Source: Promethearchaeota archaeon
Lineage (GTDB): Archaea; Asgardarchaeota; Lokiarchaeia; Sigyniarchaeales; SOKP01
Direction of reading: 5' to 3'
NCBI GenBank assembly: GCA_018238625.1
Contig: JABCSY010000005.1
Span: 1-64,000, forward strand
Length of the DNA stretch: 64,000 nucleotides
Shown here: piece after piece, positions 2,736 to 39,048 of the stretch
How the letters are laid out: each line of letters opens with the position of its first letter
How positions within the stretch are numbered: the first letter of the stretch is position 1
The notes under the pieces: model-generated
What the model was told of the DNA's origin: nothing
The model's database searches: none
The model's input: the letters and a program-made list of their open reading frames with translations, nothing else
Position numbers and translations under genes: made by a program

Positions 2736-3323
2736 TTAAATCTTTTTCTTTTGATTCTTAATACAGAACCTAACAAATAGTTTTGGATTGTTAGCATATC
2801 CATTACTGCTAATTCCCCCGCAATTCTCTAAGACTTCGTGAGGAATGGGATTGTTTCCGATTCTTAATTCTATTAAATTTATGAGGTTCTCGAGTCCCTT
2901 GACTTCAGAAATGTTATTTCCAAAGAGATTTAATTTTCTTAATTCAATTAGCCGTTCTAAACCCTTTATTTCTGATATTTGATTATCTTCGAAAGATAAA
3001 TTTTGCAGGTTATTTAATTTGGAAAGCCCCTTAATTTCTTCAATTTTATTTTCAGAAAGAAATAGCGTATCTAATTTGGCCAAAGGATATAAATTCTTAA
3101 TTTCTTTTATCTCGTTTCCATAGAGATTCAATTTTTCTAAATTTATTAGATTATCCAAATCTCTAATTTCAGAAATCTTGTTATTAAAGAGATATAAAGC
3201 CTTTAAATTTAAAAGCCCTTTAAGCCCAATTATTTTTGATATTTCTTCAATTCCGTGATTACCCAAAATTAAAGCGTTATCAGAAACTTCGAATTTCTGT
3301 CCTTGGTAGGTTATAAATTGCAT
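2736..3323 (-). CDS. SDS22-like leucine-rich repeat protein
   Basis: 22-aa repeats LxxLxLxxNxIxEIxGL. Confidence 0.92.
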   Translation of the reverse strand: MQFITYQGQKFEVSDNALILGNHGIEEISKIIGLKGLLNLKALYLFNNKISEIRDLDNLINLEKLNLYGNEIKEIKNLYPLAKLDTLFLSENKIEEIKGLSKLNNLQNLSFEDNQISEIKGLERLIELRKLNLFGNNISEVKGLENLINLIELRIGNNPIPHEVLENCGGISSNGYANNPKLFVRFCIKNQKKKI

Positions 3324-9709: not shown

Positions 9710-10609
9710 TTACGAGTATTCTTCTTTTATAAGTTTTTCAACGCGAGATAAAGGCAGAGAAAATGGTCCCATTGATTCCATTTTAAGAGAAGTTAAAGCT
9801 GCGGAGAATCTCAAGGATTCCTCTGGATTTTTAGTTATTCGAGAACCCAAATAGCTGATAAACGCTGTATCGCCCCTCCCTGTCCTTCCTATGCTCCCTT
9901 TATTTTTCCAAGGAAAAAAGTAAGAGTTGTTATTAACGCTTACATTGACTCCTTTTTCGTGTGTAATAAGAACTTCTTTCGGTCCAAATTTGTTTAGTAG
10001 TTTTGCTGCTTTCCGTACTGAAGATAGGTTTGTAAGGACTTTCGCTTCGGTTGTGTCAAGTTTTAAGAAATTTACTTTAGATATTATCTCAATCTTTTCT
10101 TTTTCGGTTAAATCGTAGTATTGTATTTTGTTATCCTTTAAGCCTCTAATAAATCCTTGTATATCAAGACCCAATTTTCCACTATATATTTCAGACAAAT
10201 ATTCTAACAGTTCTAAGTCGATTTCGCCCGCAAGAATCGGACCTATAACGAAATATTTCGTATCAATTTCAGGAATCTCTTCTTTAGTAAATGCACCTGC
10301 AAAACCTAAAGGTTCGTAACTTCTAAATTCCATATTTTGAGATAAATATATATTTTTAATCCCTGATGTTTCTTTAGCGGGATTCGCAAAGTACTTAATA
10401 TTGTTTTTATCAAAAATACCTAAATCGGGGAAATCGTCGCTTTTCAAACGCGTAATAATCGCTACTTTTAAACCCATTCGGCTTCCTGCGATTCCACCGT
10501 AAAACACAGCCCCTCCTAACGCTGTTTTGCTCACACCATCAATCACTATAATATCTTTCGCAAAATGACCAATTATAACGATATCTGATTCAAATACTTT
10601 TCGAAGCAT
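9710..10609 (-). CDS. PfkB family carbohydrate kinase
   Basis: GH.AKD, LGGAVFY, DIQGFIR, GRTGRGDT anion-hole motif. Confidence 0.88.
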   Translation of the reverse strand: MLRKVFESDIVIIGHFAKDIIVIDGVSKTALGGAVFYGGIAGSRMGLKVAIITRLKSDDFPDLGIFDKNNIKYFANPAKETSGIKNIYLSQNMEFRSYEPLGFAGAFTKEEIPEIDTKYFVIGPILAGEIDLELLEYLSEIYSGKLGLDIQGFIRGLKDNKIQYYDLTEKEKIEIISKVNFLKLDTTEAKVLTNLSSVRKAAKLLNKFGPKEVLITHEKGVNVSVNNNSYFFPWKNKGSIGRTGRGDTAFISYLGSRITKNPEESLRFSAALTSLKMESMGPFSLPLSRVEKLIKEEYS

Positions 10610-10716
10610 AATGATTGGTATTAAAATAATAAGAAAACATCTAATCTGAATTAGAAAATTAAAATTCTCTAGTTAAGTTATAAAAAAAAGGAAATAATAA
10701 AAACTTTTAAACGAGT

Positions 10717-11280: not shown

Positions 11281-11865
11281 ATGCCACCAATAAAGTATTT
11301 TACTCGTACCCACATCGTTGATGCTGCTTTTAATGTAATTAATAGTCCTGATGTTCAAGATTTAACTGCAAGGCGAGTTGCAGAATATTTAAATTCATCT
11401 ACTCAACCTGTATACAGTTATTTTAATTCGATGCATGAATTAAAACGAGCAGTAATGGAAAAAATAAAAGACATGTTAATAGATTATGCCAAAAAAAATC
11501 ATACTGAATATACATTTCTTAACATCGGATTAGGAGTGTTATTGTTCGCTAAAAAATATCCATATTCTTATCGAGCTTTATTTTTAGAAGGAAATATCTA
11601 TAAAGATCTCATTTTAGATTTTATAACGACTCTTGAAATTCTAATGGCTAAAGATAATACAATGACTTTTTTGAATGTTGAGCAACAAAAAAGCCTTTTA
11701 GATAAGATGGTGATTTATACTCATGGACTAGCATCATTAATTTGTGCTGAAATGATTGAAGATACGACTCAAGAAGCTTTACTAGGTAAATTAATGGAAG
11801 TAGGTGGCAGTTTGATTGATCATACAATCCAAAATATAAAAAAATCTGGAAAAAATTTGAAATAA
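11281..11865 (+). CDS. TetR/AcrR family transcriptional regulator (ATG 11281 preferred over TTG 11224)
   Basis: LTARRVAEYLNSSTQPVYSYF HTH; C-terminal HGLASL. Confidence 0.88.
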   Translation: MPPIKYFTRTHIVDAAFNVINSPDVQDLTARRVAEYLNSSTQPVYSYFNSMHELKRAVMEKIKDMLIDYAKKNHTEYTFLNIGLGVLLFAKKYPYSYRALFLEGNIYKDLILDFITTLEILMAKDNTMTFLNVEQQKSLLDKMVIYTHGLASLICAEMIEDTTQEALLGKLMEVGGSLIDHTIQNIKKSGKNLK

Positions 11866-11890
11866 CTTTAAAAGAGGATCGAATTTAAAA

Positions 11891-13006
11891 ATGACAAAGG
11901 AAAAAAAGGCAGTAATTATTTATGGTAGTCCAAGACGTACAAAATCTGCTTCCTATCATCTTGGGAAAAGCTTTATCAAAGGTTTACAAAGGGGGGGTTT
12001 TGAAGTGGAAGAAATCATGTTAGCCAATCAGAAAATACATCATTGTGTTGGTTGTTACACATGTTGGACCAAGACTCCCGGAGAATGTATTCATAATGAT
12101 GATATGAACGCATTGAGATTAAAATTGCGGAATGTTTCTATCACGATATATGCCACACCTTTATATATATTCAGTGTGCCGGGAATTGTAAAAGATTTTT
12201 TGGATAGACAATTACCTGAGTTTGAACCTTACTTAATTGAGAGAAATGGGATCACATCTCATCCCTATAGATATGAGTTAGAGGGTTTTCAACGGAGAAT
12301 GTTCCTGATCTGCGTTGCGGGATTTCCTGAACAATCTCATTTTGATGCTGTGGTACAGATGTTTAAGAAGAAAACAACAACAGCGGGAGAAACTTATATT
12401 GGAGATATATTAATCGGAGGGTCAGAATTAATAAGCAAGGATAACAGTCAACAATCTTTCAAAAAACTTTATGAATATGTAGAAAATGCTGGATATGAAG
12501 TAGCGACAATTGGTAAGATATCGGAAAAGACTAAAAATTTAATTAAGGAAGTATATGAATTTAAGCCTGAGGAGCTTGAAGTGTTTCGAAGTATGGCTAA
12601 CAAATACTGGGATTCAACGATTCCAAGAGATTATGATAAAGAGGATATTTCAATTTCTGAAGAAAAAATTCCATTGAAGCTCTCAGATGGAGGGATGGAA
12701 GCAACTTTTGCTGGAATGGCAATGGTATACAACCCAAATATCATCAAAGGGTTAACAGGCGTTTTTCAGTTCCACCTTGATGATGAAATTTATTACTTAG
12801 CCTTTGATGGTAATAAATGTAAAGCATATAAAGGGTCTTATCCTAAACCATTAACGACAATAATCTCACCTAAAGATGTATGGATGAAAATTTCGAATGG
12901 CGAGCTTGAAGGGCGACAAGCTTTAATGAGAGGATTATTTCAAGTAAAAGGAGATATGAACCTATTAATTAGAATGAACGAAATGTTTGAATCGACAAAA
13001 ACTTAA
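11891..13006 (+). CDS. Flavodoxin-like (NADPH-dependent FMN reductase / iron-sulfur flavoprotein) fused to SCP2 sterol-binding domain
   Basis: YGSPR, CVGCYTCWTKTPGECIH.DDM, ATPLY; C-terminal ALMRG...VKGDM SCP2 motif. Confidence 0.85.
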   Translation: MTKEKKAVIIYGSPRRTKSASYHLGKSFIKGLQRGGFEVEEIMLANQKIHHCVGCYTCWTKTPGECIHNDDMNALRLKLRNVSITIYATPLYIFSVPGIVKDFLDRQLPEFEPYLIERNGITSHPYRYELEGFQRRMFLICVAGFPEQSHFDAVVQMFKKKTTTAGETYIGDILIGGSELISKDNSQQSFKKLYEYVENAGYEVATIGKISEKTKNLIKEVYEFKPEELEVFRSMANKYWDSTIPRDYDKEDISISEEKIPLKLSDGGMEATFAGMAMVYNPNIIKGLTGVFQFHLDDEIYYLAFDGNKCKAYKGSYPKPLTTIISPKDVWMKISNGELEGRQALMRGLFQVKGDMNLLIRMNEMFESTKT

Positions 13007-13050
13007 AATACACTCCAATAAGATAAAAAAAATAAAGTGGAAATTCAAAT

Positions 13051-13596
13051 CTATTTAATCTTAGGTTTTTTAAATTGGTATTTCTGTAATAATAAAAATA
13101 TTGCTAAAATAATTCCAATCGTTAAAGGTATTAACCCTTCTATAACATAGTGAGATGAATAACTTGTTTGAATTGTTCCATATATTTCTAATAAAGTTTC
13201 AGCAGTTATAATAATATTTATAACACCAATAAAAGGTTGATTTAGATAAAGGGTTTTATAGACTCCACTAATATTCTGCACCGCGTAACAAGGGAGATAT
13301 CCTCCTTGTTCATTAATCCAAGCACCGTAGTCGTTATCATTAAGTACTAATATTGAGAAAGAACTGTTAACTGCCCCTAGACTAATAGTCAGTTTTTGAT
13401 TATTTGAAAACATTGGATAATTATAGTGTATAGTATATGTTACACCTTCTGCTATACCAAATTGGCCTAAATTCTCAATCACAACTGTATTTGGGAACGG
13501 GATACTCATAAATGAAATTCCAAGAAATGAGAAAATTATCCCTATCACCATAATAATTGTATTTTTCTGCTTTTGTTTAGATTCCTTCTCAATCAT
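13051..13596 (-). CDS. Hypothetical membrane protein (N- and C-terminal TM helices)
   Basis: Two hydrophobic segments flanking a beta-rich region. Confidence 0.7.
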   Translation of the reverse strand: MIEKESKQKQKNTIIMVIGIIFSFLGISFMSIPFPNTVVIENLGQFGIAEGVTYTIHYNYPMFSNNQKLTISLGAVNSSFSILVLNDNDYGAWINEQGGYLPCYAVQNISGVYKTLYLNQPFIGVINIIITAETLLEIYGTIQTSYSSHYVIEGLIPLTIGIILAIFLLLQKYQFKKPKIK

Positions 13597-13670
13597 AAGA
13601 AATAATTACCTCTCTTTTATTGTAATCTAAATAGAAAGAAGAAATAAACTTATTTAAATAATGTGAATGA

Positions 13671-13732
13671 TTTTGAAACTTGTAAATAAGAGGTAACTAC
13701 GCGTTCTTTATGCGATATAAATATTGAAAATC
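13671..13732 (+). repeat. 62-bp dispersed direct repeat, copy 1 (copy 2 at 17523-17584)
   Basis: 6 mismatches in 62 bp by manual alignment; corresponds to the 3' end and downstream flank of the alpha/beta hydrolase gene. Confidence 0.85.
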
Positions 13733-13915
13733 TGGGAAATCTTCGCTTTTTAACCGTGTGATAATCGATACTTTTAAACCCATTCGACTTCCGGCAATTT
13801 CCCCTAAATATACAGAACCTTCTAATATTGATTTGCTCACTCCATCGATTTCTATAATATCTTTTGCAAAATGTCAAATTATAACGATATCTGACTCAAA
13901 TACTTCTTGAACCAT
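13697..13915 (-). pseudogene. Degenerate 5' fragment of a pfkB paralogue
   Basis: MVQEVFESDIVII*HFAKDIIEIDGVSK...IAGSRMGLKVSIITRLKSEDFPD aligns with the N-terminus of 9710-10609; in-frame TGA and truncation. Confidence 0.9.
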
Positions 13916-14285
13916 AATGACTGATACTAAAATTAAATAGATGTTTAAGAAATTATCTTTTTAAAATTATAACATTAAAATTTTTTTGATAATTGATTAG
14001 AAAAAAGGTAAGTACTAAGTTTTTTGATCCTTAATTATCTTTTTCTAACCATAACATTTATATCTTCTAGTACATTCGTTATAGGATGGGTCTATGGCGA
14101 GTATTCTCTAATTTTCTCCAATTTTATAGAATTGTTCGATTCTTACCTCAAAATTTAGACAAATACAGTGAAAATTTTCTATGAAATCAGAACGTTTTTA
14201 ACAATAGAATAATCAAAAAAATTATACTTAAAAATTTATTAATGAAAAAAAAAGGATATATTTAAATACCCAATAAAAATTTTTT

Positions 14286-15896
14286 ATGGGGGGAAAAAGC
14301 ATGAAACGAAATAAATTTAAATTAGCTTTATTAATCTCGTTGACCATTTTTTTTGGTGGCTTCACGGCGATTTATCTCTATAATAACAACAATTTATTGA
14401 AGGATAGTGTTGTCGACGATTTAGAGAGCTTTTCAGAAGAATTAAAAATTTCTGTTTGGAATTGGACCTCGACCGAGGTGGTCTCCACGGAAAGCACTGG
14501 TTATTCTTATGAACCAACAATAGCAACGGACGGTTCCGGAAACGCGCATGTTACGTGGGAGGATGATACGGATTATGGCGGTTCGGGAACGGATCGTGAT
14601 ATATTCTATAAGCGCTGGAGCGCGACCACGGCGGCCTGGACCACAACCGAGGTGGTCTCCACGGAAAGCACTGCCGGTTCTTTTAGACCAACAATAGCAA
14701 CGGACGGTTCCGGAAACGTGCACATTGCGTGGTATGATGATACGGATTATAGCGGTTCGGGAGCGGATGTGGATATATTCTATAAGCGCCGGAACGCGAC
14801 CACGGCGGCCTGGACCACGACCGAGGTGGTCTCCACGGAAAGCACTGCCGATTCTTATTACCCAACAATAGCAACGGACGGTTCCGGAAACGCGCACATT
14901 GCGTGGCAGGATTATACGGATTATGGCGGTTCGGGAAGTGATGCGGATGTATTCTATAAGCGCTGGAACGCGACCACGGCGGCCTGGACCACGACCGAGG
15001 TGGTCTCCACGGAAAGCACTGCCGGCTCTTATGAACCAACAATAGCAACGGACGGTTCCGGAAACGCGCACGTTGCGTGGTATGATTATACGGATTATGG
15101 CGGTTCGGGAGCGGATCCTGATATATTTTATAAGCGCTGGAGCGCGACCACGGCGGCCTGGACCACGACCGAGGTGGTCTCCACGGAAAGCACTGCCGGT
15201 TCTTTTAGACCAACAATAGCAACGGACGGTTCCGGAAACGCGCACATTGCGTGGGATGATGGTACGGATTATGGCGGTTCGGGAACGGATGAGGATGTAT
15301 TCTATAAGCGCCGGAACGCGACCACGGCGGTCTGGACCACGACCGAGGTGGTCTCCACGGAAAGCACTGCCGGTTCTTTTAGCCCAACAATAGCAACGGA
15401 CGGTTCCGGAAACGCGCACATTGCGTGGGAGGATGGTACGGATTATGGCGGTTCGGGAACGGATTATGATATATTTTATAAAAAATTCACGTCAACTCCG
15501 TTAAATCCATCCATAATTATAAATAATGGAGATGCGAGTACAAATTCCACCTTAGTGACTCTCGCGCTCTCGGCGGATGGTGCGACAGAAATGTGCTTTA
15601 GAAATGGAACTACTGGTGCTTGGACTGATTGGGAACCTTATGCTACAGCAAAACAGTTGTATCTAGAAGGCACTACAAATAATACGGAATATTCAATCTG
15701 TGTTAAGTTTCGAAATGCAATAGGAGAAACTTCGCCAGTTTGTGATAGCATTCTGTATACTTTAGAAAAAGTTGGTGAAGAAGGACCTCCATTTGCGATT
15801 ATCGTTGCTATTATCGCAGCAATTGCAGGTGGAGGATTAGCTGTTTCTATAACAACAATATTATTGATTCGAAAACGTCGGAGAAAAGTACAATAA
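14286..15896 (+). CDS. Membrane-anchored surface protein with six 58-aa repeats (probable 6-bladed beta-propeller), a beta-sandwich-like stalk and a C-terminal TM anchor
   Basis: N-terminal signal/TM segment; repeats TEVVSTEST..S..PTIATDGSGNAHIAW.D.TDYGGSG.D.DIFYKRW; C-terminal TM followed by RKRRRK. Confidence 0.85.
   Translation: MGGKSMKRNKFKLALLISLTIFFGGFTAIYLYNNNNLLKDSVVDDLESFSEELKISVWNWTSTEVVSTESTGYSYEPTIATDGSGNAHVTWEDDTDYGGSGTDRDIFYKRWSATTAAWTTTEVVSTESTAGSFRPTIATDGSGNVHIAWYDDTDYSGSGADVDIFYKRRNATTAAWTTTEVVSTESTADSYYPTIATDGSGNAHIAWQDYTDYGGSGSDADVFYKRWNATTAAWTTTEVVSTESTAGSYEPTIATDGSGNAHVAWYDYTDYGGSGADPDIFYKRWSATTAAWTTTEVVSTESTAGSFRPTIATDGSGNAHIAWDDGTDYGGSGTDEDVFYKRRNATTAVWTTTEVVSTESTAGSFSPTIATDGSGNAHIAWEDGTDYGGSGTDYDIFYKKFTSTPLNPSIIINNGDASTNSTLVTLALSADGATEMCFRNGTTGAWTDWEPYATAKQLYLEGTTNNTEYSICVKFRNAIGETSPVCDSILYTLEKVGEEGPPFAIIVAIIAAIAGGGLAVSITTILLIRKRRRKVQ
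14463..15482 (+). repeat. 174-bp tandem repeat, about 6 copies, GC-rich
   Basis: ACCGAGGTGGTCTCCACGGAAAGCACT starts at 14472, 14646, 14820, 14994, 15168 and 15342. Hand count gives 102/180 GC over 14821-15000. Confidence 0.97.
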
Positions 15897-16383
15897 TTAA
15901 ATTTTTCACTCTTTTTTTTCTTTATACATTCCAATTAAGACTCTTTGCTTTTTTGGTTAATTTGCCAAATGAATGATAAATTATAAACTTATTCATCTAA
16001 TTTCGTAAGTTAAGTTGATGATTGGCATAAATTTTGGAATTTTATAGAAATTACCAATATTTTATAAATAATTAGAAGGTTAAGCGGCAATTCAAGGAAT
16101 TAAATAAAAGAGAGCGCCTTAGTGTAATGCCCACTTATGTCCGGACAAATGAGATGATAAGGGTCCTCCCGAAGTGCTTTTTACCCGGATGTATATCTTG
16201 CAACGCAAGTTATTCAATATCTTGGACTTGAAGCAATTTACAGGAAAATAATTTTAATATGGTGGCAAAAAAATAATATTTTTCAATTAAAAGCCATAAG
16301 ATCATATTATAAAAAATAACTTTGAAAGTCAAGAATTATTAAAATTATTCTTTAATTTTTAAACCTTGAGAGACTTTTTAATT

Positions 16384-16670
16384 ATGGCAGAAAATAAAAG
16401 AATTGGATTTCGTATTGTTGGTACGATAAGAAGCATAAAAGGGCTCTGTAAAGCATGTCATAAAGTCGGAGATGAGATAGAATTAAGCGGACACAACACA
16501 TGAGGATTATGCGGATTTTTTATCGTGATATTTTTCCATATATTTTAATGCCTTAGTTTGGAGGTTCATTCCAAAAATGGAGTGGGGATGCCGATATTGT
16601 GGAGTTAGAATGTATAGATAATACAAATACCGTAAAAATAGAATTAAGAAGGATAAGAAATAACGACTAA
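16384..16670 (+). pseudogene. TIGR04076-family small Cys-rich protein pseudogene
   Basis: MAENKRIGFRIVGTIRSIKGLCKACHKVGDEIELSGHNT*GLCGF, then a frameshift in a T-run, then YRDIFPYILMP*FGG...VELECID...VKIELRRI. Confidence 0.75.
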
Positions 16671-16759
16671 GTAAAAGAATTTAAATTATTAATTTTAAAT
16701 AATTTTAAAAATTGAAAAAAAGATATAGTTATTTATAATATTATTGGAGCTAAAAGAAA

Positions 16760-17548
16760 ATGCCGTTTTTTGAAAATGAAGGCGTGAAAATACATTATGA
16801 AATCGAAGGAAACGGTCCGGATTTGATAATGATCCATGGATTCGCCACAAGTATCAAAATCAATTGGAAATTAACAAGCTGGATTAAAACTTTAAAAGAT
16901 AATAACAGGTTAATTTTGATAGATTGCCGCGGTCATGGAAAGAGCGACAAACCCACGGATCCAGCTCAATATGGCAAAAAAATGATGGAAGATATTGTGA
17001 AATTGATGGATCATTTGTCTATTGGAAAAGCAAATTTCTTTGGGTATTCCATGGGCGGAAGTATAACCTTCGGCTTATTACTACACGAACCTAATAGAGT
17101 TAAAAGCGCAGTATTAGGGGGATTTATTCCTTCTCAAATTAACCGTGAACAGTTGGAGCAATCTAACAAACCTATGATCAATGCCTTTAGTGCTGAAAGC
17201 GTTGAACAAGTAAAAAGCCCCATAGCTAAGCAGTTTCGTAAGTTCGCTGAATCAACTGGCGCAGATTTGAAAGCTTTAATTGCTGTCATGGAGGGGTTCG
17301 CTCGCGATGTAGACGATATTTTTTCGTCTTTCTCAGAAATGAAATTAACGTTCAAAAAAATTAAAGTACCCGTGTTATCTGTCTTAGGTTCTGACGATGC
17401 ATTGATGCCTAACAAAACTTTAATCGCAGAATTGATCCCAGGAGCTTGTCATTTTCAGATCCAAGGTAAAGATCACTCAACCGTACTTTTTGATCCAAAG
17501 TTTCACATGGTTGTTAAAGCTTTTTTGAAATTTGTAAATAAGAAGTAA
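16760..17548 (+). CDS. Alpha/beta fold hydrolase
   Basis: MIHGF, DCRGHGKS, GYSMG nucleophile elbow, GSDD, GKDH. Confidence 0.92.
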   Translation: MPFFENEGVKIHYEIEGNGPDLIMIHGFATSIKINWKLTSWIKTLKDNNRLILIDCRGHGKSDKPTDPAQYGKKMMEDIVKLMDHLSIGKANFFGYSMGGSITFGLLLHEPNRVKSAVLGGFIPSQINREQLEQSNKPMINAFSAESVEQVKSPIAKQFRKFAESTGADLKALIAVMEGFARDVDDIFSSFSEMKLTFKKIKVPVLSVLGSDDALMPNKTLIAELIPGACHFQIQGKDHSTVLFDPKFHMVVKAFLKFVNKK

Positions 17549-17584
17549 CTAAGCGTTCTTTATGGGATATAAATATTAAATATC
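17523..17584 (+). repeat. 62-bp dispersed direct repeat, copy 2
   Basis: Matches 13671-13732. Confidence 0.85.
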
Positions 17585-17605
17585 AAACAAAGATTAATAC
17601 AAATA

Positions 17606-17812
17606 ATGAATAAACGAATTAAGGAAATTTTAAAAACCCTACCGCTCTTATTTGTCTTTTTAATCGCAACAATTTTCTCAGTTACGTTTCTTGCAACGGG
17701 GAACTTTAGTAATTGGGTTGAGTATCAGATTGTTATAATTATAATGGTTACCTTAATTTATATTACGGGTTTTTTTTTCTTCACAATTTTTCATTACGTT
17801 ATTCGAAATTGA
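17606..17812 (+). CDS. Small two-TM membrane protein; stop codon supplied by the IS end
   Basis: Two hydrophobic helices; TGA 17810-17812 lies within the terminal TTGA of the IS. Confidence 0.6.
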   Translation: MNKRIKEILKTLPLLFVFLIATIFSVTFLATGNFSNWVEYQIVIIIMVTLIYITGFFFFTIFHYVIRN

Positions 17813-19142
17813 ACAACCATAACCTAAAGGTTATGGATTCGTAGGTTAGACTTTCAACACTACCGGATGGTTCAAGCACCCTCTATCCCCTATCCACTTG
17901 GATTTAGGGACTCCTTTTTGTAGAATGTTTCTTGAAGCGTTCACATCGGCGTTTAGAACAACTCCGCAATCTTTACAAACGTATAGTCCACGATACTTGC
18001 GATTTGACTTGCGTACGACTCCACACGAAGAGCACATTTGCGAAGTATATTCTTCGGTGATTCTCACTACTTTAATTCCAACCATCTCAGATTTATATTC
18101 AATTTGCTGGACAAGTTTTAAAAACGGCACGGAAACAAAGTTCTGGTTGTTTCTTTTCCCTATCTTAATTTTCTGCTTCCACCCCTCGTTATATCCGATA
18201 ACAATCGTTCCGATATCGTTAGAGATGCAGTGATTGACTATTTTTCGGGAAGTCTTGTGAAAGAAATCCCTTATTTTATTGTTTCGCTTTCGATGAAACT
18301 TCAAAATGCGTCCCGTGACATTCGTGTCGTTGCACTTTTTCGCCATGGACTTGTATTTTGACAGTTGCTTGTTGTAGAATTGATTGATTGACTTTACAAC
18401 ACCGCCCTTGATAATCAATGGCTTGTTTCCAATGTTATCTGACGCAGTTACGATATTGTTAAGTCCTAGATCGATTCCTAATGCGTTATTTTCGTTCAAG
18501 TGCAAGTCTTTTGGCTCGTAATCGTAGATTAATTCAATATTGTATCGATCTCCGAAAGGAACGATGCGAACGCCTTTTACGCTTTTTAACGCGGTTTTTA
18601 TTTTAGGAAAACCTAAGTTCTCCATCTTTTGTGTGAGTAATACGTGTCCATTCTTTAGCCTACATTGTAAGGAAGTGAAATAGACTACATTATGACCGTT
18701 TTTACGCTTGTAACGAGGAAGCTTTGGTATTCCCTTAAATTTAGACCGTTCGCTTTTCCAAACCTTGATTGCTTTAAAGAAACTCTTGAAATTTCTATCT
18801 ACTTGTTTTAGGACTTGCTGTGGCGGATGAGACCCGCACGATTCTTGTAGTTTTCTATACGATTCGTGAGTTTTTAGCAATTTCCACAACTCGTTATATC
18901 GAATCCAATGATGGTCCTTGAAAAATCGTTGTCGCACGGTATATGTCGCCACATTAAACAGGTTTTTAGAAAGAAAAGTTATCTCATCCAAAAGATTTAA
19001 TCGTTTGAATTGAACTTGTTGAACGAGTTGCATTAATTATAACGTGGAGTATTTCGTATTTAAAGAAATAGGGGTATAATTTTTACTGATTAATGCAAAT
19101 TTAACACAACTCTAAAGGGATGCGTTTTCTTTTGCGAAAGCG
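17809..19142 (-). mobile_element. IS200/IS605-family (IS1341-type, tnpB-only) element
   Basis: On the minus strand: target TTTAT (19147-19143), left-end hairpin AACGCATCCC-TTTA-GAGTTGTGTT, tnpB, right-end hairpin CCATAACC-TTTA-GGTTATGG, terminal TCAA. No tnpA. Confidence 0.85.
17846..19033 (-). CDS. tnpB: RNA-guided endonuclease TnpB
   Basis: GIDLG (RuvC-I), IVIGYNEGWKQ, TEEYTSQMCSSC...CKDC zinc finger, NADVNAS (RuvC-III). Confidence 0.95.
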   Translation of the reverse strand: MQLVQQVQFKRLNLLDEITFLSKNLFNVATYTVRQRFFKDHHWIRYNELWKLLKTHESYRKLQESCGSHPPQQVLKQVDRNFKSFFKAIKVWKSERSKFKGIPKLPRYKRKNGHNVVYFTSLQCRLKNGHVLLTQKMENLGFPKIKTALKSVKGVRIVPFGDRYNIELIYDYEPKDLHLNENNALGIDLGLNNIVTASDNIGNKPLIIKGGVVKSINQFYNKQLSKYKSMAKKCNDTNVTGRILKFHRKRNNKIRDFFHKTSRKIVNHCISNDIGTIVIGYNEGWKQKIKIGKRNNQNFVSVPFLKLVQQIEYKSEMVGIKVVRITEEYTSQMCSSCGVVRKSNRKYRGLYVCKDCGVVLNADVNASRNILQKGVPKSKWIGDRGCLNHPVVLKV

Positions 19143-19154
19143 ATAAAAATCGAA

Positions 19155-19877
19155 TCAACTATTTACTGCTTTAATTATAGCGTTGGCTATTGCTTTGACT
19201 AAAATATTGGTACGATCAAAATCTAAGCGGATTTGTTTTGCGACTTCGATTTGAATAGCGCTAACTTTACTTCTGTTGTAAAACTGATGCGTAATGTATC
19301 CTCCTGAATATGATAGATTAAAATCTGTTAGGGCTAATCCATCGTCCAACACAAAGAATTTAGATATTTCGTATTGTAATTGAGCACAGCCCCAATATCT
19401 ATTACAATCTTGTTCTTTTGAATTTTCAAGAAGATCAAGAGTTTTGCCAAAGATGTGGCCAAATATCACGTCAGGATATCCCTTGTAAGGTTTTGTGAAC
19501 CCGTGAAAGTCAATTATCAAAGCTCTATTGTGCTTTGAAACGCACTCTTGAGCAAAATTATTTAATTGGTCTTGATACGCGCGAAAGATGTTTTGAGCTT
19601 CGGCAGAAGAATGATTAAAAGCGCTTTTAGAGTGAGGTGGTCTGTTTAAATCAATTTTACTTCTATGAATTTTACTTAAGATGGAATAAATATCGATGTT
19701 TTTTACTTTAAGTTGTTTGATTATTAATTTTGCTATGAAGAAAGTGTTCTTATCGGCAATTTTCACCCCAGTAGTTTTGTTTAATATCCTTTTTGGCTTT
19801 TTATAGCCTCCGTGAGGGCACGATAAGATTACTGGTGTGTTACCTTTTTCGACTTCAAAATATCTACTTAAATCCAT
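19155..19877 (-). CDS. N-formylglutamate amidohydrolase-like protein
   Basis: ILSCPHGG, RSKIDLNR, IDFHG, YSGGYIT, AIQIE. Confidence 0.8.
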   Translation of the reverse strand: MDLSRYFEVEKGNTPVILSCPHGGYKKPKRILNKTTGVKIADKNTFFIAKLIIKQLKVKNIDIYSILSKIHRSKIDLNRPPHSKSAFNHSSAEAQNIFRAYQDQLNNFAQECVSKHNRALIIDFHGFTKPYKGYPDVIFGHIFGKTLDLLENSKEQDCNRYWGCAQLQYEISKFFVLDDGLALTDFNLSYSGGYITHQFYNRSKVSAIQIEVAKQIRLDFDRTNILVKAIANAIIKAVNS

Positions 19878-20142
19878 TCAATATAAAAAATTAACATCGA
19901 ATTATAAAGTTTGATAAAATGCTACGAAGTTCACAACTAAATTTTTTTAACGCGTATTTTAAGCTAAAAGAGATTCGAATTTATTTATGTCGTTAACTAT
20001 TCTGAGCTTACTGTTAAACTCGTTGCAGTTTATCATTAATATAATAATAAAAATTTTCATAATGTTTTTTAAATTTGTTACTTTTTATTTATTACATTTA
20101 AGTAAAATTAGATGTTACCATTTAACTAAGGTAAGGGATAAT

Positions 20143-22273: not shown

Positions 22274-25200
22274 TTATTTTTTATCTTTAAGACCTTTTTC
22301 TTCTAATAAAGAATCTAAATCTGTTGCTGGCTTTTCTGTCTTAATTTCTTTTTGTTTCTGTTTTTTAGACAATTTTTTACTCGCTTTTTTTGCCGGCATT
22401 TTTTTGGGTTCTTCTTTGGGTAATTCACTTACACTAACATATCTTCCTCTTCTTGGTTTTTTCTTAGAAGGTTCTTCGATAGGAGTTTCAATTTTCTCCG
22501 TAGTTCTTTTGACATATAAGTACATTACGCCCCATAATAACGCAAAAATACCGATCATAATTAGCGTAAAGAAAACGGTGATGTAATTTGCAAGAGGTAT
22601 GTCGTAAATTTCAAATGTTTTTATCGTTTGAACGGTTATGTTCTCATGTGTTAATTCGTTCGTTGCTTCTATTAATACTGTAATCGTCATCTCATTTATA
22701 GCAGGAACATCTATAGATATTAATAAGTCTGTAGATTCTCCGGGTTGGAAGTTATTTAATATTAAATAATTTATCTCAACAATGCTATGCGTTAAAGAAG
22801 GTGCGATTATAATAGATATCCTTGAACTCGAAATAGCTAGTATTGAATCGCCAATATTAGTTAATGTTATTTTCATTGTTGTTTTACCGTTTCTAGTAAT
22901 CTGATTTACGTTCGATACAATTCCCAAAGATATGTTGTTAGATACTTTGTACAAAGACACAGAGATATTTTGCGAATTCTCTAAAATATACTGTTCTCCT
23001 TGCCAAGTGAGCCTAAATAGAAGGTCATCTTCACGTAGTAGCGATAGAGTATCAATCTCAAAGCTTGTAACTCCATTAGCACCCGAAATTTGAGATGAAA
23101 CGTTTTCCCATAAACCACTATCAAAATATTGGCAAGTAACATTCTTATTTGAAATTTCTTCTCCGAATTCGGTAGTTAACACAGAACTAATGTTAAATTT
23201 TTGTCCGTAAATTGGTGTTTGAGGATTAATTATAATATCAGAGAATTTGCTATTTACTTTCAAGGAAAATGAATCGATAAATTGATTATAACTGCTTACG
23301 AAGTTTTTGTCATATATGTTTACGACAAATGTTGTTTGATTAGGCATGTATTGGCACACATCTCTTTCAAACGGTTTTAATATCGAAGCTCCTGTAATTT
23401 CCTCGTCGTATTTTAAAGTTATGATATAACCTTCAAATTCATTTTGAGTGCTATTTATTATCAATGAGTACTCATTACTTTCAAAAGTATCAACTTCATG
23501 ACTTTCTCCTGAGTATTCAAAATAGACCGTAAATATTGTTTTAGCTCCTCCTTTTCTAACGGGCGCGTTTACTCCTTGCCAAACTCCGTCTGCTTGAAGA
23601 GTTGGTATTGTAAGACTTACGGAAAAGTCTTGCGTGTCAGCACCGTTAGGTGTTCCACTTGTTTTTAGACTTTCTACATCAGTGTACTTCTCAGCAATTA
23701 TCCATTCTTCGTTAACCAGAGACACTAATTGAACTTTTAATTTTACATCCAAATCGATAAAATCGTGCAAATTTTGAATTGTTACGCCTATTTTGATATC
23801 TTCATTGGGATTAAGAAGAGTTTCATTTTGCAAAAAGGTTTTTACTAGTATTGGTATCTCTTCGCCGTTTATTTCATAAATAAATTGTTGATTTATGTCA
23901 GAGTTATTAACCGCGTAAAAATCTGGATAATAATTATCATCTGTTACATTTATTGTACCAATCAACATTGAATAACTTTCATAAACTTTGTCTACAATGC
24001 CGTCAAGGATGTTTTGGTCTAGGATTGGTTCGTAAAATAAACTATTCATATTAATGCCATAAGTGTCAATATATAATTTCAGTTTCTTACATCCAACTGC
24101 GGAACCATTCTCCCAGAAATAGCCTAAATAATAATTTCCAAGGAGAGGTGTATCTTTGGTAACATCTAAAATAGTTTGGTTATTGAAGTCATATACAAGC
24201 GTAGTACCTTTAATCATTCCTGCTCCTGAATTCATTTCTCCTCCTGGAAATATGGTGCTATTATCTGGATAAAACAGTTTAACATTTGCATTGCCACTTG
24301 TGGGTGGTATACCGTTGGGACCTTGGATATCAACGCCTACAGATATATTATCTCCATACATAAATCCATTTGTCTCCCATAAAATTCCATTGTAATTAAT
24401 GTAACTATGCATCTCATCTATGAGGTTACTACTCGTTAAATTAAGAGAGTAGATTCCGTCAATGCCTTTAACTACGGCGCTAGTAATAGCTGTAAAATCA
24501 TACGATGGGTTAGCGTCAAAATTAGTCTCTCCTCCTGTGCTATTTACCACCTCTCCGTAAATCTCATCGTAATTTGGATTAATTAAGCTTTTTGCATCCC
24601 AATCGTTGGGATATACAAACCAAAATTCAAGGAAGTTCCAATTATCAAGATTAGCATCACTTAAATCTAAAGTGTAATTTAAATCCCATCTCGGAGTTGT
24701 ATCGTACGATACCTCATAATAACTATTCGCGTTTTCTACCCAATAACCCTTTACTGTATAAGTAACATTGAATTTAAACCCTGAAATAATGCTACTATTC
24801 CATGTGAGATCTATTTGTAAATTATTTGAAATACTTTCAATTTCGACTGTAAAGTTATTGTTCCATTGCCCTTTTCCCCAAGTTAAGGATGAGCTTACAT
24901 CATAAGGGGGCTCGCTGATAATTTGATCTTCTATTGAAATATCTTGTATTCTTAGCGTATCTTGACTATCGTCAGGATTAATAAAGTCAGAAGGCATATA
25001 TCCGCGCGTTACGTTCAATTTAAAAACTGTTGCATCTAATTCTTCAGATTCGTAGCCTGGAGTCACTTGTTTTTTGGCAACATTCCAGGTTAGACCATCG
25101 TCATTAGTCGTTCTTAATTGATGATCTACAGTAGAATTTGGATCGCCAAAAGTTTGTCTGGGAAGCGTTACTAAACTAAATATTTTATCTGTATGGTTTG

Positions 25201-26440
25201 ATTTAATTACTATGAAATAATTATAGAGTTTTAGATTTTGAGTGTTCGCTTGGTTAAATTCGAAATAGGATAAAGAATCTCCATTATAATTGCTAATTAT
25301 TATTGAATCGATTAATTTTGCGTTGTCAGGTTTTAAATTATTTGATATTAAATTAGCTTGAGTTCTCGTTATTGTTGCATTAGCTTCGTATAAAGTTATA
25401 TTTAGTTCTGCGGAAAGGGCTTCAGTAAGGTTTAATGTTCTTATCCAAGCGTAAAAACCGTTTACTGCCGAACTCTTTCCCTTCAAATCAAACTCTAAAG
25501 CGACATATTCATTATTGGTAATAGGTAAATCAAATACATAAGTAGAATCCAATTTGAATTCTCTTAACGAAAGGACAAAGTCATTGCTATCAAATCTTTG
25601 TAAGTAGAATTGTATCTTACTAATATCGGAGGAGTTAATATAGTTTAAGTTTTCGTTAACGAATCGGTTTTCAATTGTTTTAGTGCTATTTATAAACACC
25701 GTTTCCGTAACGTTTTTCCAAGTGGAGTCAGATATATCAAACATTTTTAAGGTTAAATAAGCATCCTCATCGATACTATATGAAAAAGTTGAAATTAAGC
25801 CTAATATGAAAGATCTATTAAAATCAAGATCATCCCCTAGTACATTAAAGATTGTATTAGCAAAACTTGAAGAAATTGTGAAATTTAAAATTCCGTTCGA
25901 AGAGTTTAATTCGATATATGTACTAGGATTTTCATCAACAAGCCAGTCTAAATCTATAGGCTCATTGAGAACCTCTCCAGTATTTACATTCATTGAGGAG
26001 TCACCAGTATTATAAGTGAATTTTATGAAATCGCTTGCGTCTAACGCGCTTGTATCTTCTATTACGTGATCTGTTGTGTAATTATTCTGGAAAGTGAAGT
26101 TTAAATTTCCATAAGTGAGATATGTCGTATCAGATACCGACATAGAAGGGATATCAAAAGATCCTTGATTATTATCGTTTGAATACGAACTATTTAAAGC
26201 GTAAATTCTAACATCTTGTGGGTCTCCTGAACCCGTAGTGTAATAATCTGTTAGGTACGGATCAATTTCAGACGAAAGAGGGTTGTTATCGTCATTTAAC
26301 AAATTTGTTAGTTTGTTATTACTACTATCTAAATATAAACCATTAAAAATCTGAATATTCACTAAAAGCATAGAAATTATGAATATGCTAACAAAAAAAA
26401 TTCTTTTAACATCCTTTTTTCGTCGAATCAAATAAACCAA
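22274..26440 (-). CDS. Large (1388 aa) extracellular protein with N-terminal signal, C-terminal TM and Lys-rich cytoplasmic tail
   Basis: Many NxS/T sequons and beta-rich acidic sequence; TM near the C-terminus followed by a basic tail ending DLDSLLEEKGL. Confidence 0.8.
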   Translation of the reverse strand: MVYLIRRKKDVKRIFFVSIFIISMLLVNIQIFNGLYLDSSNNKLTNLLNDDNNPLSSEIDPYLTDYYTTGSGDPQDVRIYALNSSYSNDNNQGSFDIPSMSVSDTTYLTYGNLNFTFQNNYTTDHVIEDTSALDASDFIKFTYNTGDSSMNVNTGEVLNEPIDLDWLVDENPSTYIELNSSNGILNFTISSSFANTIFNVLGDDLDFNRSFILGLISTFSYSIDEDAYLTLKMFDISDSTWKNVTETVFINSTKTIENRFVNENLNYINSSDISKIQFYLQRFDSNDFVLSLREFKLDSTYVFDLPITNNEYVALEFDLKGKSSAVNGFYAWIRTLNLTEALSAELNITLYEANATITRTQANLISNNLKPDNAKLIDSIIISNYNGDSLSYFEFNQANTQNLKLYNYFIVIKSNHTDKIFSLVTLPRQTFGDPNSTVDHQLRTTNDDGLTWNVAKKQVTPGYESEELDATVFKLNVTRGYMPSDFINPDDSQDTLRIQDISIEDQIISEPPYDVSSSLTWGKGQWNNNFTVEIESISNNLQIDLTWNSSIISGFKFNVTYTVKGYWVENANSYYEVSYDTTPRWDLNYTLDLSDANLDNWNFLEFWFVYPNDWDAKSLINPNYDEIYGEVVNSTGGETNFDANPSYDFTAITSAVVKGIDGIYSLNLTSSNLIDEMHSYINYNGILWETNGFMYGDNISVGVDIQGPNGIPPTSGNANVKLFYPDNSTIFPGGEMNSGAGMIKGTTLVYDFNNQTILDVTKDTPLLGNYYLGYFWENGSAVGCKKLKLYIDTYGINMNSLFYEPILDQNILDGIVDKVYESYSMLIGTINVTDDNYYPDFYAVNNSDINQQFIYEINGEEIPILVKTFLQNETLLNPNEDIKIGVTIQNLHDFIDLDVKLKVQLVSLVNEEWIIAEKYTDVESLKTSGTPNGADTQDFSVSLTIPTLQADGVWQGVNAPVRKGGAKTIFTVYFEYSGESHEVDTFESNEYSLIINSTQNEFEGYIITLKYDEEITGASILKPFERDVCQYMPNQTTFVVNIYDKNFVSSYNQFIDSFSLKVNSKFSDIIINPQTPIYGQKFNISSVLTTEFGEEISNKNVTCQYFDSGLWENVSSQISGANGVTSFEIDTLSLLREDDLLFRLTWQGEQYILENSQNISVSLYKVSNNISLGIVSNVNQITRNGKTTMKITLTNIGDSILAISSSRISIIIAPSLTHSIVEINYLILNNFQPGESTDLLISIDVPAINEMTITVLIEATNELTHENITVQTIKTFEIYDIPLANYITVFFTLIMIGIFALLWGVMYLYVKRTTEKIETPIEEPSKKKPRRGRYVSVSELPKEEPKKMPAKKASKKLSKKQKQKEIKTEKPATDLDSLLEEKGLKDKK

Positions 26441-36999: not shown

Positions 37000-38865
37000 G
37001 TGAAAAGAATGAAATCAAAAAACACAAGAAATACTGTATTAATTTCTGTTTTATTAACAATACTCGTGATAAATCTTGGATTCGTTTTTACTAATTTATC
37101 ATTTTCAAAAGCAACAAACCAAATTACCTTTCTTGAGGGCTTAAAAACATCGGCAACTCATAATAGCACAATAGCGATTGATGATGCTAATCCTGCTAGT
37201 GATTGGGCAACTTGGAAAGCCGCGGGTCTTTGTACTGGTTCTGGGACATCTGGAGATCCTTACATTATAAGTGGTGATACATTTAATACGACCACTGGTA
37301 GTGAATGTTTGTCTATTCATAATTCTAGAAAACACTTTCGAGTTCTTAATTGTGAGTTTATAATATCTGGTTTTAGTGTAGGAATTTGGCTCGATAATAC
37401 CACGAACGGGTTAATTGAAGGTAATCAATTGCCAAGGAATATATTTTATAATGTATATGTTGATAATTGCAGCCAAATAATTTTAAGGGATAATAATTGT
37501 TCAGCAAGCGGAATTGGTATAGTTGTTGTTAATTCAGATTACATAGATTTATATTCCAACATTGTTAATGACAATGGAGCTTATGGGATTGTCTTTGATA
37601 ATTGCGAGATTTGTATTATTGAAGATAATGACCTAATAGAAAATGATGACGATGGGATATACCTTGACGGTTGCGATTTCGTTACAATTAGAACCAATAC
37701 TATTATAAATAATACTATTGGCATTAATAACGAAATCTCAAATAATACGCAAGTATTAGGTAATACAATTACAAATAACGGTAATCATGGGATTCGAATT
37801 TTTCAGAGTTATTGGTGTGAAATTACAGGAAATACAATCACAGAGAGTATTTCTGATGGAATCAGAGTTGAACAAAGCGATCATAATCTATTTGAATCAA
37901 ATATGGTAAACGACAATTTCTATGGAATCCATCTTATAACACACTCAGATTTTAATACAATTTCGAAAAATACAGCCAATGATAATCAAAATAATGGGAT
38001 TTATCTATCTTTCTGTGATTTTAATACAGTTGATCAGAATACAGCCAATGATAATGGAAATCAGGGGATATATCTAAGTAACTGTGATTTTAATGTCGTT
38101 GATCAAAATGCTGCTAATCATAATGGCGGTGAAGGAGTTTGGCTTGCAAACAGTGATCATTCAAGTGTATCTAAGAGTATTACTTACAATAACACAGGAA
38201 ATGGCGTCAGGCTTAATACTGGAATAAATATTACCTGTATTGACAATGTAATCTATAATAACCTTGGAAACGGTATTAGATTATTTAATATTGACGATGG
38301 CGAGGTGAGGGGAAATAATGTGCATCATAATGGTGAAGATGGTATCAGACTTCTTTCAAATTCTGAACGAAATGTAATTACTGGAAATATAGCATCTTTT
38401 AATAATTTAAGTGGAATTTCCTTGTTGAGCAGTTCTAATGAAGCTCTAATCAACAACAATGACGCATCTAATAATGAAGAGCATGGAATATCCGTACAGT
38501 TGTGTACAAATGTTGCTATTACCAGTAACATAGCAAACAATAATAAAATGAATGGTATTAGTCTATTTTCTTCTGACGGTAATTTTATCTTTAGCAATAC
38601 AGCGAGTGGAAATGTGAACGGAACTAATCTAATTTCCAGCGATAATAATATAATTAGTGGAAATTTGCTTTATGGAAACGATTATTGCATGAATGAAACA
38701 GATAGCTACCAAAATGTATACTCAGACAATATCTGTACTGCGCCTATAACGCCCAGCCCAGGACTAGATCCCTTTATCCTTGGATTGATTATTGGATTAG
38801 CTATAGGATTAGGTGCTCTTGCAGCAGTAATAATTCTAAGTTTAACTCGAGGAAGGAAGAAATAA
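37000..38865 (+). CDS. Right-handed parallel beta-helix (NosD/CASH-like) surface protein, paralogue 1
   Basis: GSGTSGDPYII motif, N-rich 22-23 aa coils, C-terminal TM LDPFILGLIIGLAIGLGALAAV. Confidence 0.88.
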   Translation: MKRMKSKNTRNTVLISVLLTILVINLGFVFTNLSFSKATNQITFLEGLKTSATHNSTIAIDDANPASDWATWKAAGLCTGSGTSGDPYIISGDTFNTTTGSECLSIHNSRKHFRVLNCEFIISGFSVGIWLDNTTNGLIEGNQLPRNIFYNVYVDNCSQIILRDNNCSASGIGIVVVNSDYIDLYSNIVNDNGAYGIVFDNCEICIIEDNDLIENDDDGIYLDGCDFVTIRTNTIINNTIGINNEISNNTQVLGNTITNNGNHGIRIFQSYWCEITGNTITESISDGIRVEQSDHNLFESNMVNDNFYGIHLITHSDFNTISKNTANDNQNNGIYLSFCDFNTVDQNTANDNGNQGIYLSNCDFNVVDQNAANHNGGEGVWLANSDHSSVSKSITYNNTGNGVRLNTGINITCIDNVIYNNLGNGIRLFNIDDGEVRGNNVHHNGEDGIRLLSNSERNVITGNIASFNNLSGISLLSSSNEALINNNDASNNEEHGISVQLCTNVAITSNIANNNKMNGISLFSSDGNFIFSNTASGNVNGTNLISSDNNIISGNLLYGNDYCMNETDSYQNVYSDNICTAPITPSPGLDPFILGLIIGLAIGLGALAAVIILSLTRGRKK

Positions 38866-38945
38866 ATCCTAACCTTTTTTTTTAATTTTTTTCTTAATTA
38901 AATCTAATTGTAATAATGCATGAAAGCATGTCTTGTTATGGTTAC

Positions 38946-38989: not shown

Positions 38990-39048
38990 TGAAATAATCT
39001 TAATACCATATTAACACAAAATATAACAAAAAATAGAGAATGAAATAA

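Follow-up and report, generated by a model that had tools for sequence, protein, structure and literature searches.

In fungi, the WD40 repeats in HET-D and HET-E proteins evolve in concert, carry four selected codons on their interaction face and vary in number (Paoletti et al. 2007, PMC1805685). Among archaea, Nerearchaeum marumarumayae, a cultured member of the Promethearchaeaceae, encodes 36 membrane-tethered proteins that combine a ‘WD40’ propeller of 5–9 blades with a fibronectin-type domain; these have been proposed to form the globular densities that lie 12 nm above the membrane at the cell surface (10.1101/2025.07.22.663070). No S-layer is present in cultured Promethearchaeaceae, which display globular surface densities of unidentified nature and live in tight partnership with bacteria (10.1101/2025.07.22.663070). 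Here we analyse a surface propeller gene of a Promethearchaeota archaeon, located within positions 1–64,000 of contig JABCSY010000005.1 (GenBank assembly GCA_018238625.1). This 64-kb stretch, hereafter the window, is the part of the genome in view, and all window counts cover these 64 kb only. The gene contains six tandem blade units whose DNA is nearly invariant apart from seven codons per unit. We consider it likely, with appreciable room for doubt, that the blades are under concerted evolution combined with diversifying selection on a top-face binding surface exposed on an Asgard cell; that selection acts on binding, and that gene conversion homogenises the blades, is what we infer from the patterns described below.

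The repeat array (14463–15481) has a period of 174 bp and 5.9 copies, with 90% matches and 1% indels (Tandem Repeats Finder, score 1633), and a repeat search returns five in-register 300-nt copies, spaced by 174 bp, that are 89–94% identical. The array lies in frame inside the longest open reading frame (ORF; 14286–15896). A scan of genome contigs gave 19 loci, none of them from the window's own genome. Four of them (L016–L019) match the Fn3-like part of the protein only; the other 15 were used as related loci, the closest being L012, L001 and L006, all from Promethearchaeota metagenome-assembled genomes (MAGs). The gene probably comprises 14301–15896, because L012, the closest homologue that is complete, starts at an ATG equal to window position 14301 (the earlier ATG is out of frame in L012) and P0002, a near-identical protein from another public assembly, likewise starts at the methionine of 14301. 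Mean blade identity in the window array is 0.81 at the protein level and 0.91 at the DNA level over 50 codons, with 0.081 synonymous differences per synonymous site (pS); the nucleotide identity between L012 blades is 0.87. A first reading of the sequence letters, referred to here as the earlier note, had described a 174-bp array with a nearly identical scaffold inside an AT-rich gene. Array and scaffold are as it described them, with a GC content of 55% in place of the claimed value of about 57%.

The differences between blades are concentrated at few positions. Across 822 blades of the best 120 proteins, a set of top matches biased towards the query and aligned to a blade profile, positions 13, 14, 16, 17, 33, 35 and 45 of the 58-residue unit have entropies of 3.2–4.1 bits and accommodate 19–20 residue types, and the remainder of the unit is conserved. 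Within single proteins, entropy at these seven positions is 2.0–2.2 bits, the next highest position reaching 1.57. Blade-to-blade identity is 0.12 within and 0.09 between proteins at the hypervariable positions, against 0.71 and 0.66 for the scaffold. An independent ranking of 809 blades, with the window protein and P0002 left out, places position 25 seventh instead of position 13; position 25 differs from protein to protein, not among the blades within one. In the window, variation affects 14 of 21 columns of the top seven codons, compared with 15 of 129 elsewhere (Fisher p = 2e-7). Tyr (13%), Ser (10%), Asp (9%), Glu (8%), Gly (8%), Asn (7%), Arg (5%) and Trp (4.6%) predominate at hypervariable positions, and Lys, Pro, Cys, Met and Ile are scarce. 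At position 45 the six window blades use six different codons (CGT, GTG, GCG, CCT, GAG and TAT). Third bases of variable codons are T in 67 of 98 cases (15 G, 9 C and 7 A), a T-ending majority that resembles host codons. The three variable spots to which the earlier note drew attention, and the six codons at one of them, are exactly as it described; their clustering exceeds chance, the same positions are hypervariable throughout the family, and non-synonymous divergence there lies far above synonymous divergence.

This last point emerges from substitution rates, which are given as differences per site, with pN and pS (non-synonymous and synonymous) obtained by Nei–Gojobori counting and not by a likelihood site model. 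Within the window array, the rate is 0.425 for hypervariable codons, 0.043 for scaffold third positions and 0.038 for scaffold first and second positions; the corresponding values are 0.531, 0.066 and 0.071 within the L012 array and 0.586, 0.069 and 0.086 between the two arrays. The consensus units of the window and L012 are 91% identical, their differences lying mostly in hypervariable codons and the scaffold being shared almost base for base. In the older L002 array, hypervariable codons stand at 0.58, scaffold third positions at 0.258 and first and second positions at 0.085. Comparison of the window with L012 outside the array gives pS 0.195 and pN 0.053 for the N-terminal part and pS 0.196 and pN 0.055 for the Fn3-like domain; scaffold codons give pS 0.092 and pN 0.077, and hypervariable codons pN 0.61. 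Thus, hypervariable pN values of 0.47–0.61 contrast with 0.056–0.092 for scaffold pS and 0.195 for flank pS. With a pN of 0.61 against a pS of about 0.195 for the gene, the hypervariable codons have changed several-fold faster than synonymous sites. As a control, tandem copies of the Fn3-like domain in L012, which are of similar age, give pS 0.196 and pN 0.114, with changes scattered. Among 96 blade pairs that agree in the residue at a hypervariable position, 87 also agree in the codon; the frequency of a different codon for the same residue (9/96, 9.4%) is close to that of the scaffold (195/3,242, 6.0%). Since codon sharing is near the scaffold level, copying plus selection is weakly favoured over a locally raised mutation rate.

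So sharp a rate contrast between neighbouring codons, with whole codons replaced as at position 45, could also be the work of a dedicated mutator located elsewhere in the genome, either a diversity-generating retroelement (DGR) or another targeted process using the consensus blade as template, and the 64 kb in view are a small enough part of the genome to leave room for one. We regard this as very improbable. No reverse transcriptase (RT) domain was found at E<=1e-5 in 46 of the 50 window ORFs of at least 120 aa (not scanned: the propeller ORF itself, plus three that are antisense or overlapping), or at E<=1e-8 in 113 of the 115 ORFs of at least 180 aa from the 15 related loci (two antisense ORFs in the L012 array were left out). 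Nor was there a template copy: an nhmmer search with a blade-DNA profile (E<=10, filters off, both strands) finds only the six blades in 64 kb, in agreement with the window repeat search, and in the flanks of the 15 related loci the profile finds only the arrays. A DGR was therefore rejected for the window and these loci; the earlier note had reported neither RT nor template in the window, and this holds at higher sensitivity. Third positions of the variable codons vary too, a feature not predicted by the classical AAY template design, and the codon mismatch frequencies given above reveal no evident local rise in mutation rate. The identical positions vary, moreover, in members with old, diverged arrays. 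The propeller fold is not known to be among the usual DGR target folds. A paper on Asgard mobile elements makes no mention of DGRs (PMC11529989, 0 occurrences).

Scaffold differences between genes extend across whole arrays. Codon 22 is ACG in 6/6 window blades and GTG, GTA or GCG in 7/7 L012 blades, mostly a two-base difference, and codon 28 differs between the two genes, in 5/6 against 7/7 blades. Scaffold residues that are peculiar to one protein and common to all its seven blades are frequent in the family (for example, in P0032 and P0042). Array-wide fixed differences of this type indicate conversion or unequal crossing-over, or re-amplification from one blade. In the window array, 59 of 120 informative site pairs fail the four-gamete test; that the blades are mosaics is supported, and fits shuffling or gene conversion. 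Units 1 and 4, and units 2 and 5, do share motifs, from which the earlier note had deduced a three-blade doubling. The sharing stands and a clean doubling was rejected: units 3 and 6 are unpaired (they form the second-least-alike pair, with 75% amino acid identity), the incompatible site pairs are numerous, and P0002 has seven blades.

P0002 differs from the window protein by one residue outside the array, and its blades 1–4 and its last blade are identical to those of the window. A single blade of the window corresponds in P0002 to a pair, and it is mainly at hypervariable positions that these differ. Blade 5 of the window contains residues present in neither blade 5 nor blade 6 of P0002, and so is no simple hybrid of the two. 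Allele-level polymorphism confined to blades 5 and 6 is supported.

Uniform arrays with fixed differences could also have been built in place by recent amplification of a single GC-rich blade, independently in each lineage and with no ongoing homogenisation, after which positive selection changed the loop codons. Positions at which every blade of a propeller differs from every blade of a close homologue have been read by Pereira and Lupas, who studied other propellers, as independent amplification (PMC9218822). The window and L012 arrays are indeed young, as their nucleotide identities indicate, L012 has two more young tandem arrays, and the limits of the GC-rich stretch are exactly those of the repeated unit. 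We nevertheless consider this account unlikely. Under it, hypervariable codons start identical and must reach 0.43–0.53 while scaffold third positions are at 0.04–0.07, which demands an extreme rate ratio; the mosaic motif sharing and blades 5 and 6 of P0002 point to exchange after amplification. In addition, a synonymous variant (A at column 9 of unit 2) is found in the same-numbered blade of the window and of L012, a coincidence in the two sequences which hints that the array is older than the split between them.

Assembly might have produced the array in whole or in part, by collapsing or joining repeats from different strains or paralogues. The window protein has six blades, whereas P0002 and 102 of the 120 best relatives have seven that are detectable; the array is cut by a contig end in at least five of the 15 related archaeal loci (L001, L006, L009, L011 and L014); and Pereira and Lupas caution about the assembly of such repeats (PMC9218822). 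As an explanation of the pattern this is the least credible of those considered here. The longest exact run common to two blades is 73 bp, below common reads and k-mers, so that the array is resolvable by assembly. The ORF is intact, blade 5 is no simple hybrid, and the layout of AT-rich ends, GC-rich array and the same hypervariable codons recurs independently, completely in L012 and partially in L001 and L006. The hypervariable pattern is not an artefact; the blade count of six, for which an assembly error is possible, may be one.

The predicted structure supports a surface-anchored propeller, the hydrophobic helices at both ends pointing to the cell surface. The protein matches Pfam SBBP (PF06739) with 31.7 bits (cut-off 20.5; E = 1.5e-7), a label precomputed on most relatives. 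The AlphaFold2 model, run on an alignment of 69 sequences (pTM 0.70), comprises an N-terminal helix, a low-confidence linker, six blade units (pLDDT mostly >90), a β-sandwich and C-terminal helices (residue ranges in Table 1), and the predicted fold is a closed propeller of six three-plus-one strand units. In a velcro closure, the three strands of unit 6 would be joined by the first strand of unit 1. Over the sandwich part, the family profile matches PDB entry 3mpc, an ‘Fn3-like protein’ (E = 8e-5); the same sequence search gave no match among solved structures for the propeller part. Foldseek returns generic six-bladed propellers at 10–20% identity, such as sialidases, the designed Pizza6 and PknD. 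Pfam and NCBIfam scans reveal no NACHT/NTPase signalling domain in the protein, and no BNR family model is among its Pfam matches at E<=1. The PVV-CTERM sorting model gives a weak match below threshold (E = 0.009; 15.7 bits, cut-off 27), and a search of the ESM Atlas gave low-score leads only (0.75–0.78). Seven N-x-S/T sequons are present, three of them at one equivalent place in blades 2, 3 and 5, and the family consensus retains N-A-S/T at this site; the blade sequons may be glycosylated.

DSSP assigns strands to unit positions 15–22, 28–34 and 46–53, with short pieces within 1–7, and in this order the model suggests four antiparallel strands per blade, A, B, C and D. The D–A loop finishes with positions 13 and 14, strand A begins with 16 and 17, 33 closes strand B, and 35 and 45 form the two ends of the B–C loop. 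Because each of the seven positions lies where strand A begins, strand B ends or strand C begins, they should share one face, opposite the stalk. A shared face had been put forward in the earlier note as something that structure prediction could reveal, and by AlphaFold2/DSSP topology the variable residues do lie at one end of the strands. In propellers, the face that bears these loop ends usually binds ligands. In the same topology, the chain, having passed through strand C of the last blade, departs from the opposite face and continues into the Fn3-like stalk and the membrane helix, so the variable face should point outward.

Exposed positions distal to the membrane would equally be expected to vary if variability served escape and not binding. 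The protein would then belong to the exposed coat of an S-layer-less cell on which viruses or predators dock, and any loop change would be favoured. In line with this, paralogues are very numerous, the globular densities on relatives make up a coat that is irregular and non-crystalline (10.1101/2025.07.22.663070), and identity at the hypervariable positions, both within and between proteins, is near random expectation. We see escape as possible though rather unlikely. The variable positions are enriched in Tyr, Trp, Ser, Asp and Gly and poor in Lys, Pro and Ile, and by strand topology the variable residues would surround conserved Asp-rich loops on the canonical ligand face. A make-up rich in Tyr, Trp, Ser, Asp and Gly is typical of binding sites rather than of arbitrary surface. 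A phage collection contained no relative of the propeller protein, which says little for or against escape.

The array also differs from its surroundings in base composition. GC content is 55% in the array, 32% in the whole window, 29–31% in the N-terminal part of the same ORF and 39% in the C-terminal part; at third codon positions (GC3) it is 0.56 in the array, against 0.35 and 0.23 in the N- and C-terminal parts and 0.23–0.43 in 24 other window ORFs. The GC-rich scaffold is common to the window, L012, L001 and L006 (GC3 0.41–0.56), that is, to other Promethearchaeota genomes; older arrays of Heimdall-type genomes have a GC3 of 0.19–0.29. GC-biased conversion was rejected as a general cause, as the other young arrays of L012 have a GC3 of 0.28–0.30 and the L002 array, with 80% blade identity, one of 0.21. 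RNA structure behind the synonymous conservation was rejected as well: the sense unit has z = 0.06 and the antisense unit z = -1.93, with 10 of 200 shuffles equally good, and there is no Rfam match in 13000–20000. Possible origins of the scaffold are an imported foreign blade lineage that spread through the array, conversion bias in the most active arrays, or selection at the DNA level.

An invariant, compositionally foreign scaffold of this kind might itself be a working part of the system. Loki- and Heimdall-type archaea would then hold a germline repertoire of antibody-like propeller receptors, in which 42–49 top-face residues are diversified by a dedicated DNA-level process, the GC-rich scaffold providing either the homology needed for cassette-type conversion, among paralogous arrays as well as between strains, or a landing site for a targeted mutator. 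We think this quite unlikely. If true, these cells, which lack an S-layer and are the nearest relatives of eukaryotes known, would carry a coat that acts as a programmable surface for recognising partners and viruses. The antibody-like surface had been raised in the earlier note, with blade shuffling, gene conversion or targeted mutagenesis as its source. An anchored propeller, a single variable face by topology and mosaic blades that fit shuffling or conversion have come out in its favour; targeted mutagenesis has not, given the lack of RT and template in the loci searched and the variation at third positions.

The protein belongs to a family of thousands of genes in Asgard archaea, in which six blades are the exception and seven the rule. 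A word-indexed search gave 858 proteins at E<=1e-3 among 7,999 scored candidates; members with names come from Heimdallarchaeota, Helarchaeota and Promethearchaeia. In an exhaustive profile search, the number of matching cluster representatives was 39,279 at E<=1e-3 (the loosest count, which takes in matches to the Fn3-like part alone), 16,571 at 1e-10 and 2,612 at 1e-30, and the matches include giant proteins with many matched stretches. Several paralogues are often found on one contig, and L015 has two adjacent genes. The Fn3-like stalk appears to be a widely shared module, since L016–L019, from a Methanophagales MAG and bacterial MAGs (Desulfobia, Chloroflexota and Treponemataceae), contain relatives of it at 29–46% identity. 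The two further young tandem arrays of L012 are at 11374–12700 and 14959–16049. In the L012 homologue, the Fn3-like domain forms a 276-bp tandem array (4.8 copies, 87% matches), and a neighbouring gene on the opposite strand encodes a second SBBP propeller (156-bp unit × 5.1, 85% matches). Domain-sized tandem amplification thus seems common in surface proteins of the L012 genome.

Under concerted evolution with diversifying selection, the mechanism that we favour, the gene product would be displayed on a Promethearchaeota (Loki-type) cell. It would begin with a signal or anchor helix, continue as a propeller whose SBBP-type blades have 58 residues each, and be held by an Fn3-like stalk and a membrane helix at the C terminus. 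Intragenic gene conversion or unequal crossing-over would keep the scaffold DNA nearly identical, exchange with paralogues probably adding to the homogenisation, while diversifying selection would keep the seven loop positions of each blade different. The outcome would be a ring of 42 variable Tyr/Ser/Asp-rich residues here, or of 49 in the usual family form, acting as a variable ligand-binding surface; several such genes per genome would differ in specificity.

A number of observations weigh against this mechanism. Recent re-amplification from one blade would yield the same array-wide fixed differences as conversion, and no paralogue or donor blade was found within the 64 kb by repeat search and nhmmer. 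In a nearest-neighbour test of scaffolds, made at the protein level on 714 blades, the nearest scaffold lies in the same protein for 94 blades, with 61 further ties (chance, 0.8%); it is the same-numbered blade of another protein for 217 and another blade of another protein for 342, so much of the protein-level likeness among blades is plain consensus conservation. Blades of older members have saturated synonymous divergence (pS 0.6–0.7). With the nearest-neighbour test mixed and the old arrays saturated, homogenisation would be episodic or lineage-specific. In young arrays, scaffold pN is close to pS (0.035 against 0.056, and 0.063 against 0.091), unlike what simple purifying selection would leave. 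The placement of the variable positions on one face was read from strand topology, not from model coordinates; escape from viruses that use the coat as receptor would yield the same variability, binding being the predicted function. Finally, concerted evolution offers no explanation for the GC-rich scaffold.

The features of the locus are collected in Table 1. Similarity between the window and L012 begins about 56 bp upstream of the ORF and is absent farther upstream, and homology with L001 extends to about 15954. Synteny with L012 was rejected: there is no nucleotide match beyond the gene, and the downstream hydrolases are unrelated (21% identity, E = 0.35).

Table 1 Features of the propeller locus, in window positions
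Feature	Positions	Strand	Basis
Putative archaeal promoter in a conserved upstream block that includes an A-rich stretch and a TATA-like element (about 14256-14268)	14243..14285	+	Alignment with L012; promoter role suggested by sequence
Probable surface propeller coding sequence, 531 aa	14301..15896	+	ORF list; start by L012 and P0002
N-terminal hydrophobic helix, residues 3-35, candidate signal peptide or signal anchor	14307..14405	+	AlphaFold2 helix
Blade unit 1	14463..14636	+	Repeat finder, in-frame alignment
Blade unit 2	14637..14810	+	Repeat finder, in-frame alignment
Blade unit 3	14811..14984	+	Repeat finder, in-frame alignment
Blade unit 4	14985..15158	+	Repeat finder, in-frame alignment
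Blade unit 5, differing from the two units at the same place in allele P0002	15159..15332	+	
Blade unit 6, truncated, departing from the repeat after codon 50	15333..15482	+	
Hypervariable codons, in every unit	Offsets from unit start: +36..+41, +45..+50, +96..+98, +102..+104, +132..+134		
Fn3-like β-sandwich stalk, residues 405-485	15513..15755	+	AlphaFold2 strands; family profile against PDB 3mpc
C-terminal hydrophobic helix followed by a basic tail, predicted membrane anchor	15792..15890	+	AlphaFold2 helices 498-530; sequence
T8 tract 3' of the stop codon, possible archaeal terminator	15912..15919	+	Sequence; function suggested by it

The window is otherwise ordinary chromosome and contains genes for methionyl-tRNA synthetase, for metabolism and for other families of surface proteins. 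Antisense ORFs run across the array (14442–15419, minus strand, 325 aa; 14683–15048, minus strand, 121 aa), as they do in the L012 array (383 and 170 aa); they probably arise as a by-product of a repeat that is rich in GC and free of stop codons. The stretch 13671–13933, immediately upstream of the propeller gene, is a composite: 62 nt of it copy the 3' flank of the hydrolase gene (17523–17584) at 90% identity, and 206 nt copy the 5' end of gene 9710–10609 (10422–10627) at 82% identity. Judged by these copies, the composite is a putative remnant of a rearrangement bracketing the propeller gene and the hydrolase gene. Downstream of the propeller gene, at a distance of 2 kb, is a 395-aa ORF (17846–19033, minus strand) with OrfB_IS605 and Cas12f1-like TNB domains (TnpB-type, IS200/IS605 family). 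Four right-handed β-helix (NosD-like) proteins, three of them in a row, are encoded at 37000–43201 and 53956–55314 on the plus strand. These paralogues have long stretches that are 85–89% identical and an internal 69-bp repeat, and represent another expanding surface-protein family, which also occurs near the propeller genes of L007, L008, L009 and L015. Small leucine-rich-repeat proteins are encoded in the window (2736–3323, minus strand) and in L013 (2088–3101, minus strand), near the propeller gene of a Promethearchaeum MAG. A 1,388-aa ORF (22274–26440, minus strand) has no Pfam match at E<=1e-5.

Membrane-tethered propellers with a near-random, aromatic-rich outer face are candidates for the surface densities of S-layer-less cells, and the family is a candidate for the recognition of partners, glycans or viruses. 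It also constitutes a natural library on a very regular scaffold, usable for structural and binding studies. Our literature search, which left most subscription journals and bioRxiv supplements outside its scope, found no description of hypervariable blades in Asgard surface propellers. The N. marumarumayae proteins come from the same clade and resemble the propeller described here in having a signal sequence, a propeller, a fibronectin-type domain and a membrane segment, a likeness of architecture only; the preprint, in the part available, contains nothing on repeat identity, hypervariable positions or DNA composition (10.1101/2025.07.22.663070).

Structurally, the model comes closest to the six-bladed bacterial sialidase/BNR (Asp-box) propellers (for example, 2ber and 1eut; E about 1e-12, TM 0.47–0.48), and a BNR_4 label (PF15892) is precomputed on relatives. 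The sialidases differ in their non-uniform blades, against uniform blades in the Asgard protein, and identity is 10–12%. DGR targets are similar in that few codons are randomised in an invariant stretch of a surface-exposed binder; the Asgard propeller differs from them in its fold, in having variable sites in every blade and varying third positions, and in that no RT or template was found. Arrays of WD40 and TPR units that are highly repetitive and hypervariable occur in bacterial NLR-like proteins as well. The highly repetitive propellers ‘continuously amplified from single blades’ of Pereira and Lupas (2022, PMC9218822) share with the present case near-identical blade DNA, nucleotides fixed throughout a propeller and a variable blade number. 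That work stresses amplification and not fixed diversified positions, and its main text has 0 occurrences each of hypervariable, SBBP, Lokiarchae and Heimdall.

A homogenised scaffold with scrambled loop codons is best known from fungal intracellular immune receptors, and the family described here would extend it to the exterior of Asgard cells, and so to a further domain of life and a different cellular location. HET-D and HET-E of Podospora anserina (HNWD/NWD family) have, like the Asgard propeller, near-identical blade DNA within and between genes, attributed to unequal crossing-over or gene conversion, and few diversified codons per repeat (four there, seven here); the fungal repeat number varies between isolates (PMC1805685), as the blade number may in the Asgard gene. 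The fungal proteins are cytoplasmic NACHT–WD40 receptors with blades of about 42 residues and with RIP as an added mutator (PMC1805685), whereas the Asgard protein is predicted to be extracellular, with an SBBP-type blade of 58 residues, an Fn3-like stalk, a membrane anchor and no NTPase domain. Because it lacks a NACHT domain and should be extracellular, it falls outside the HNWD family; by analogy, it would work like that family without being a member of it.

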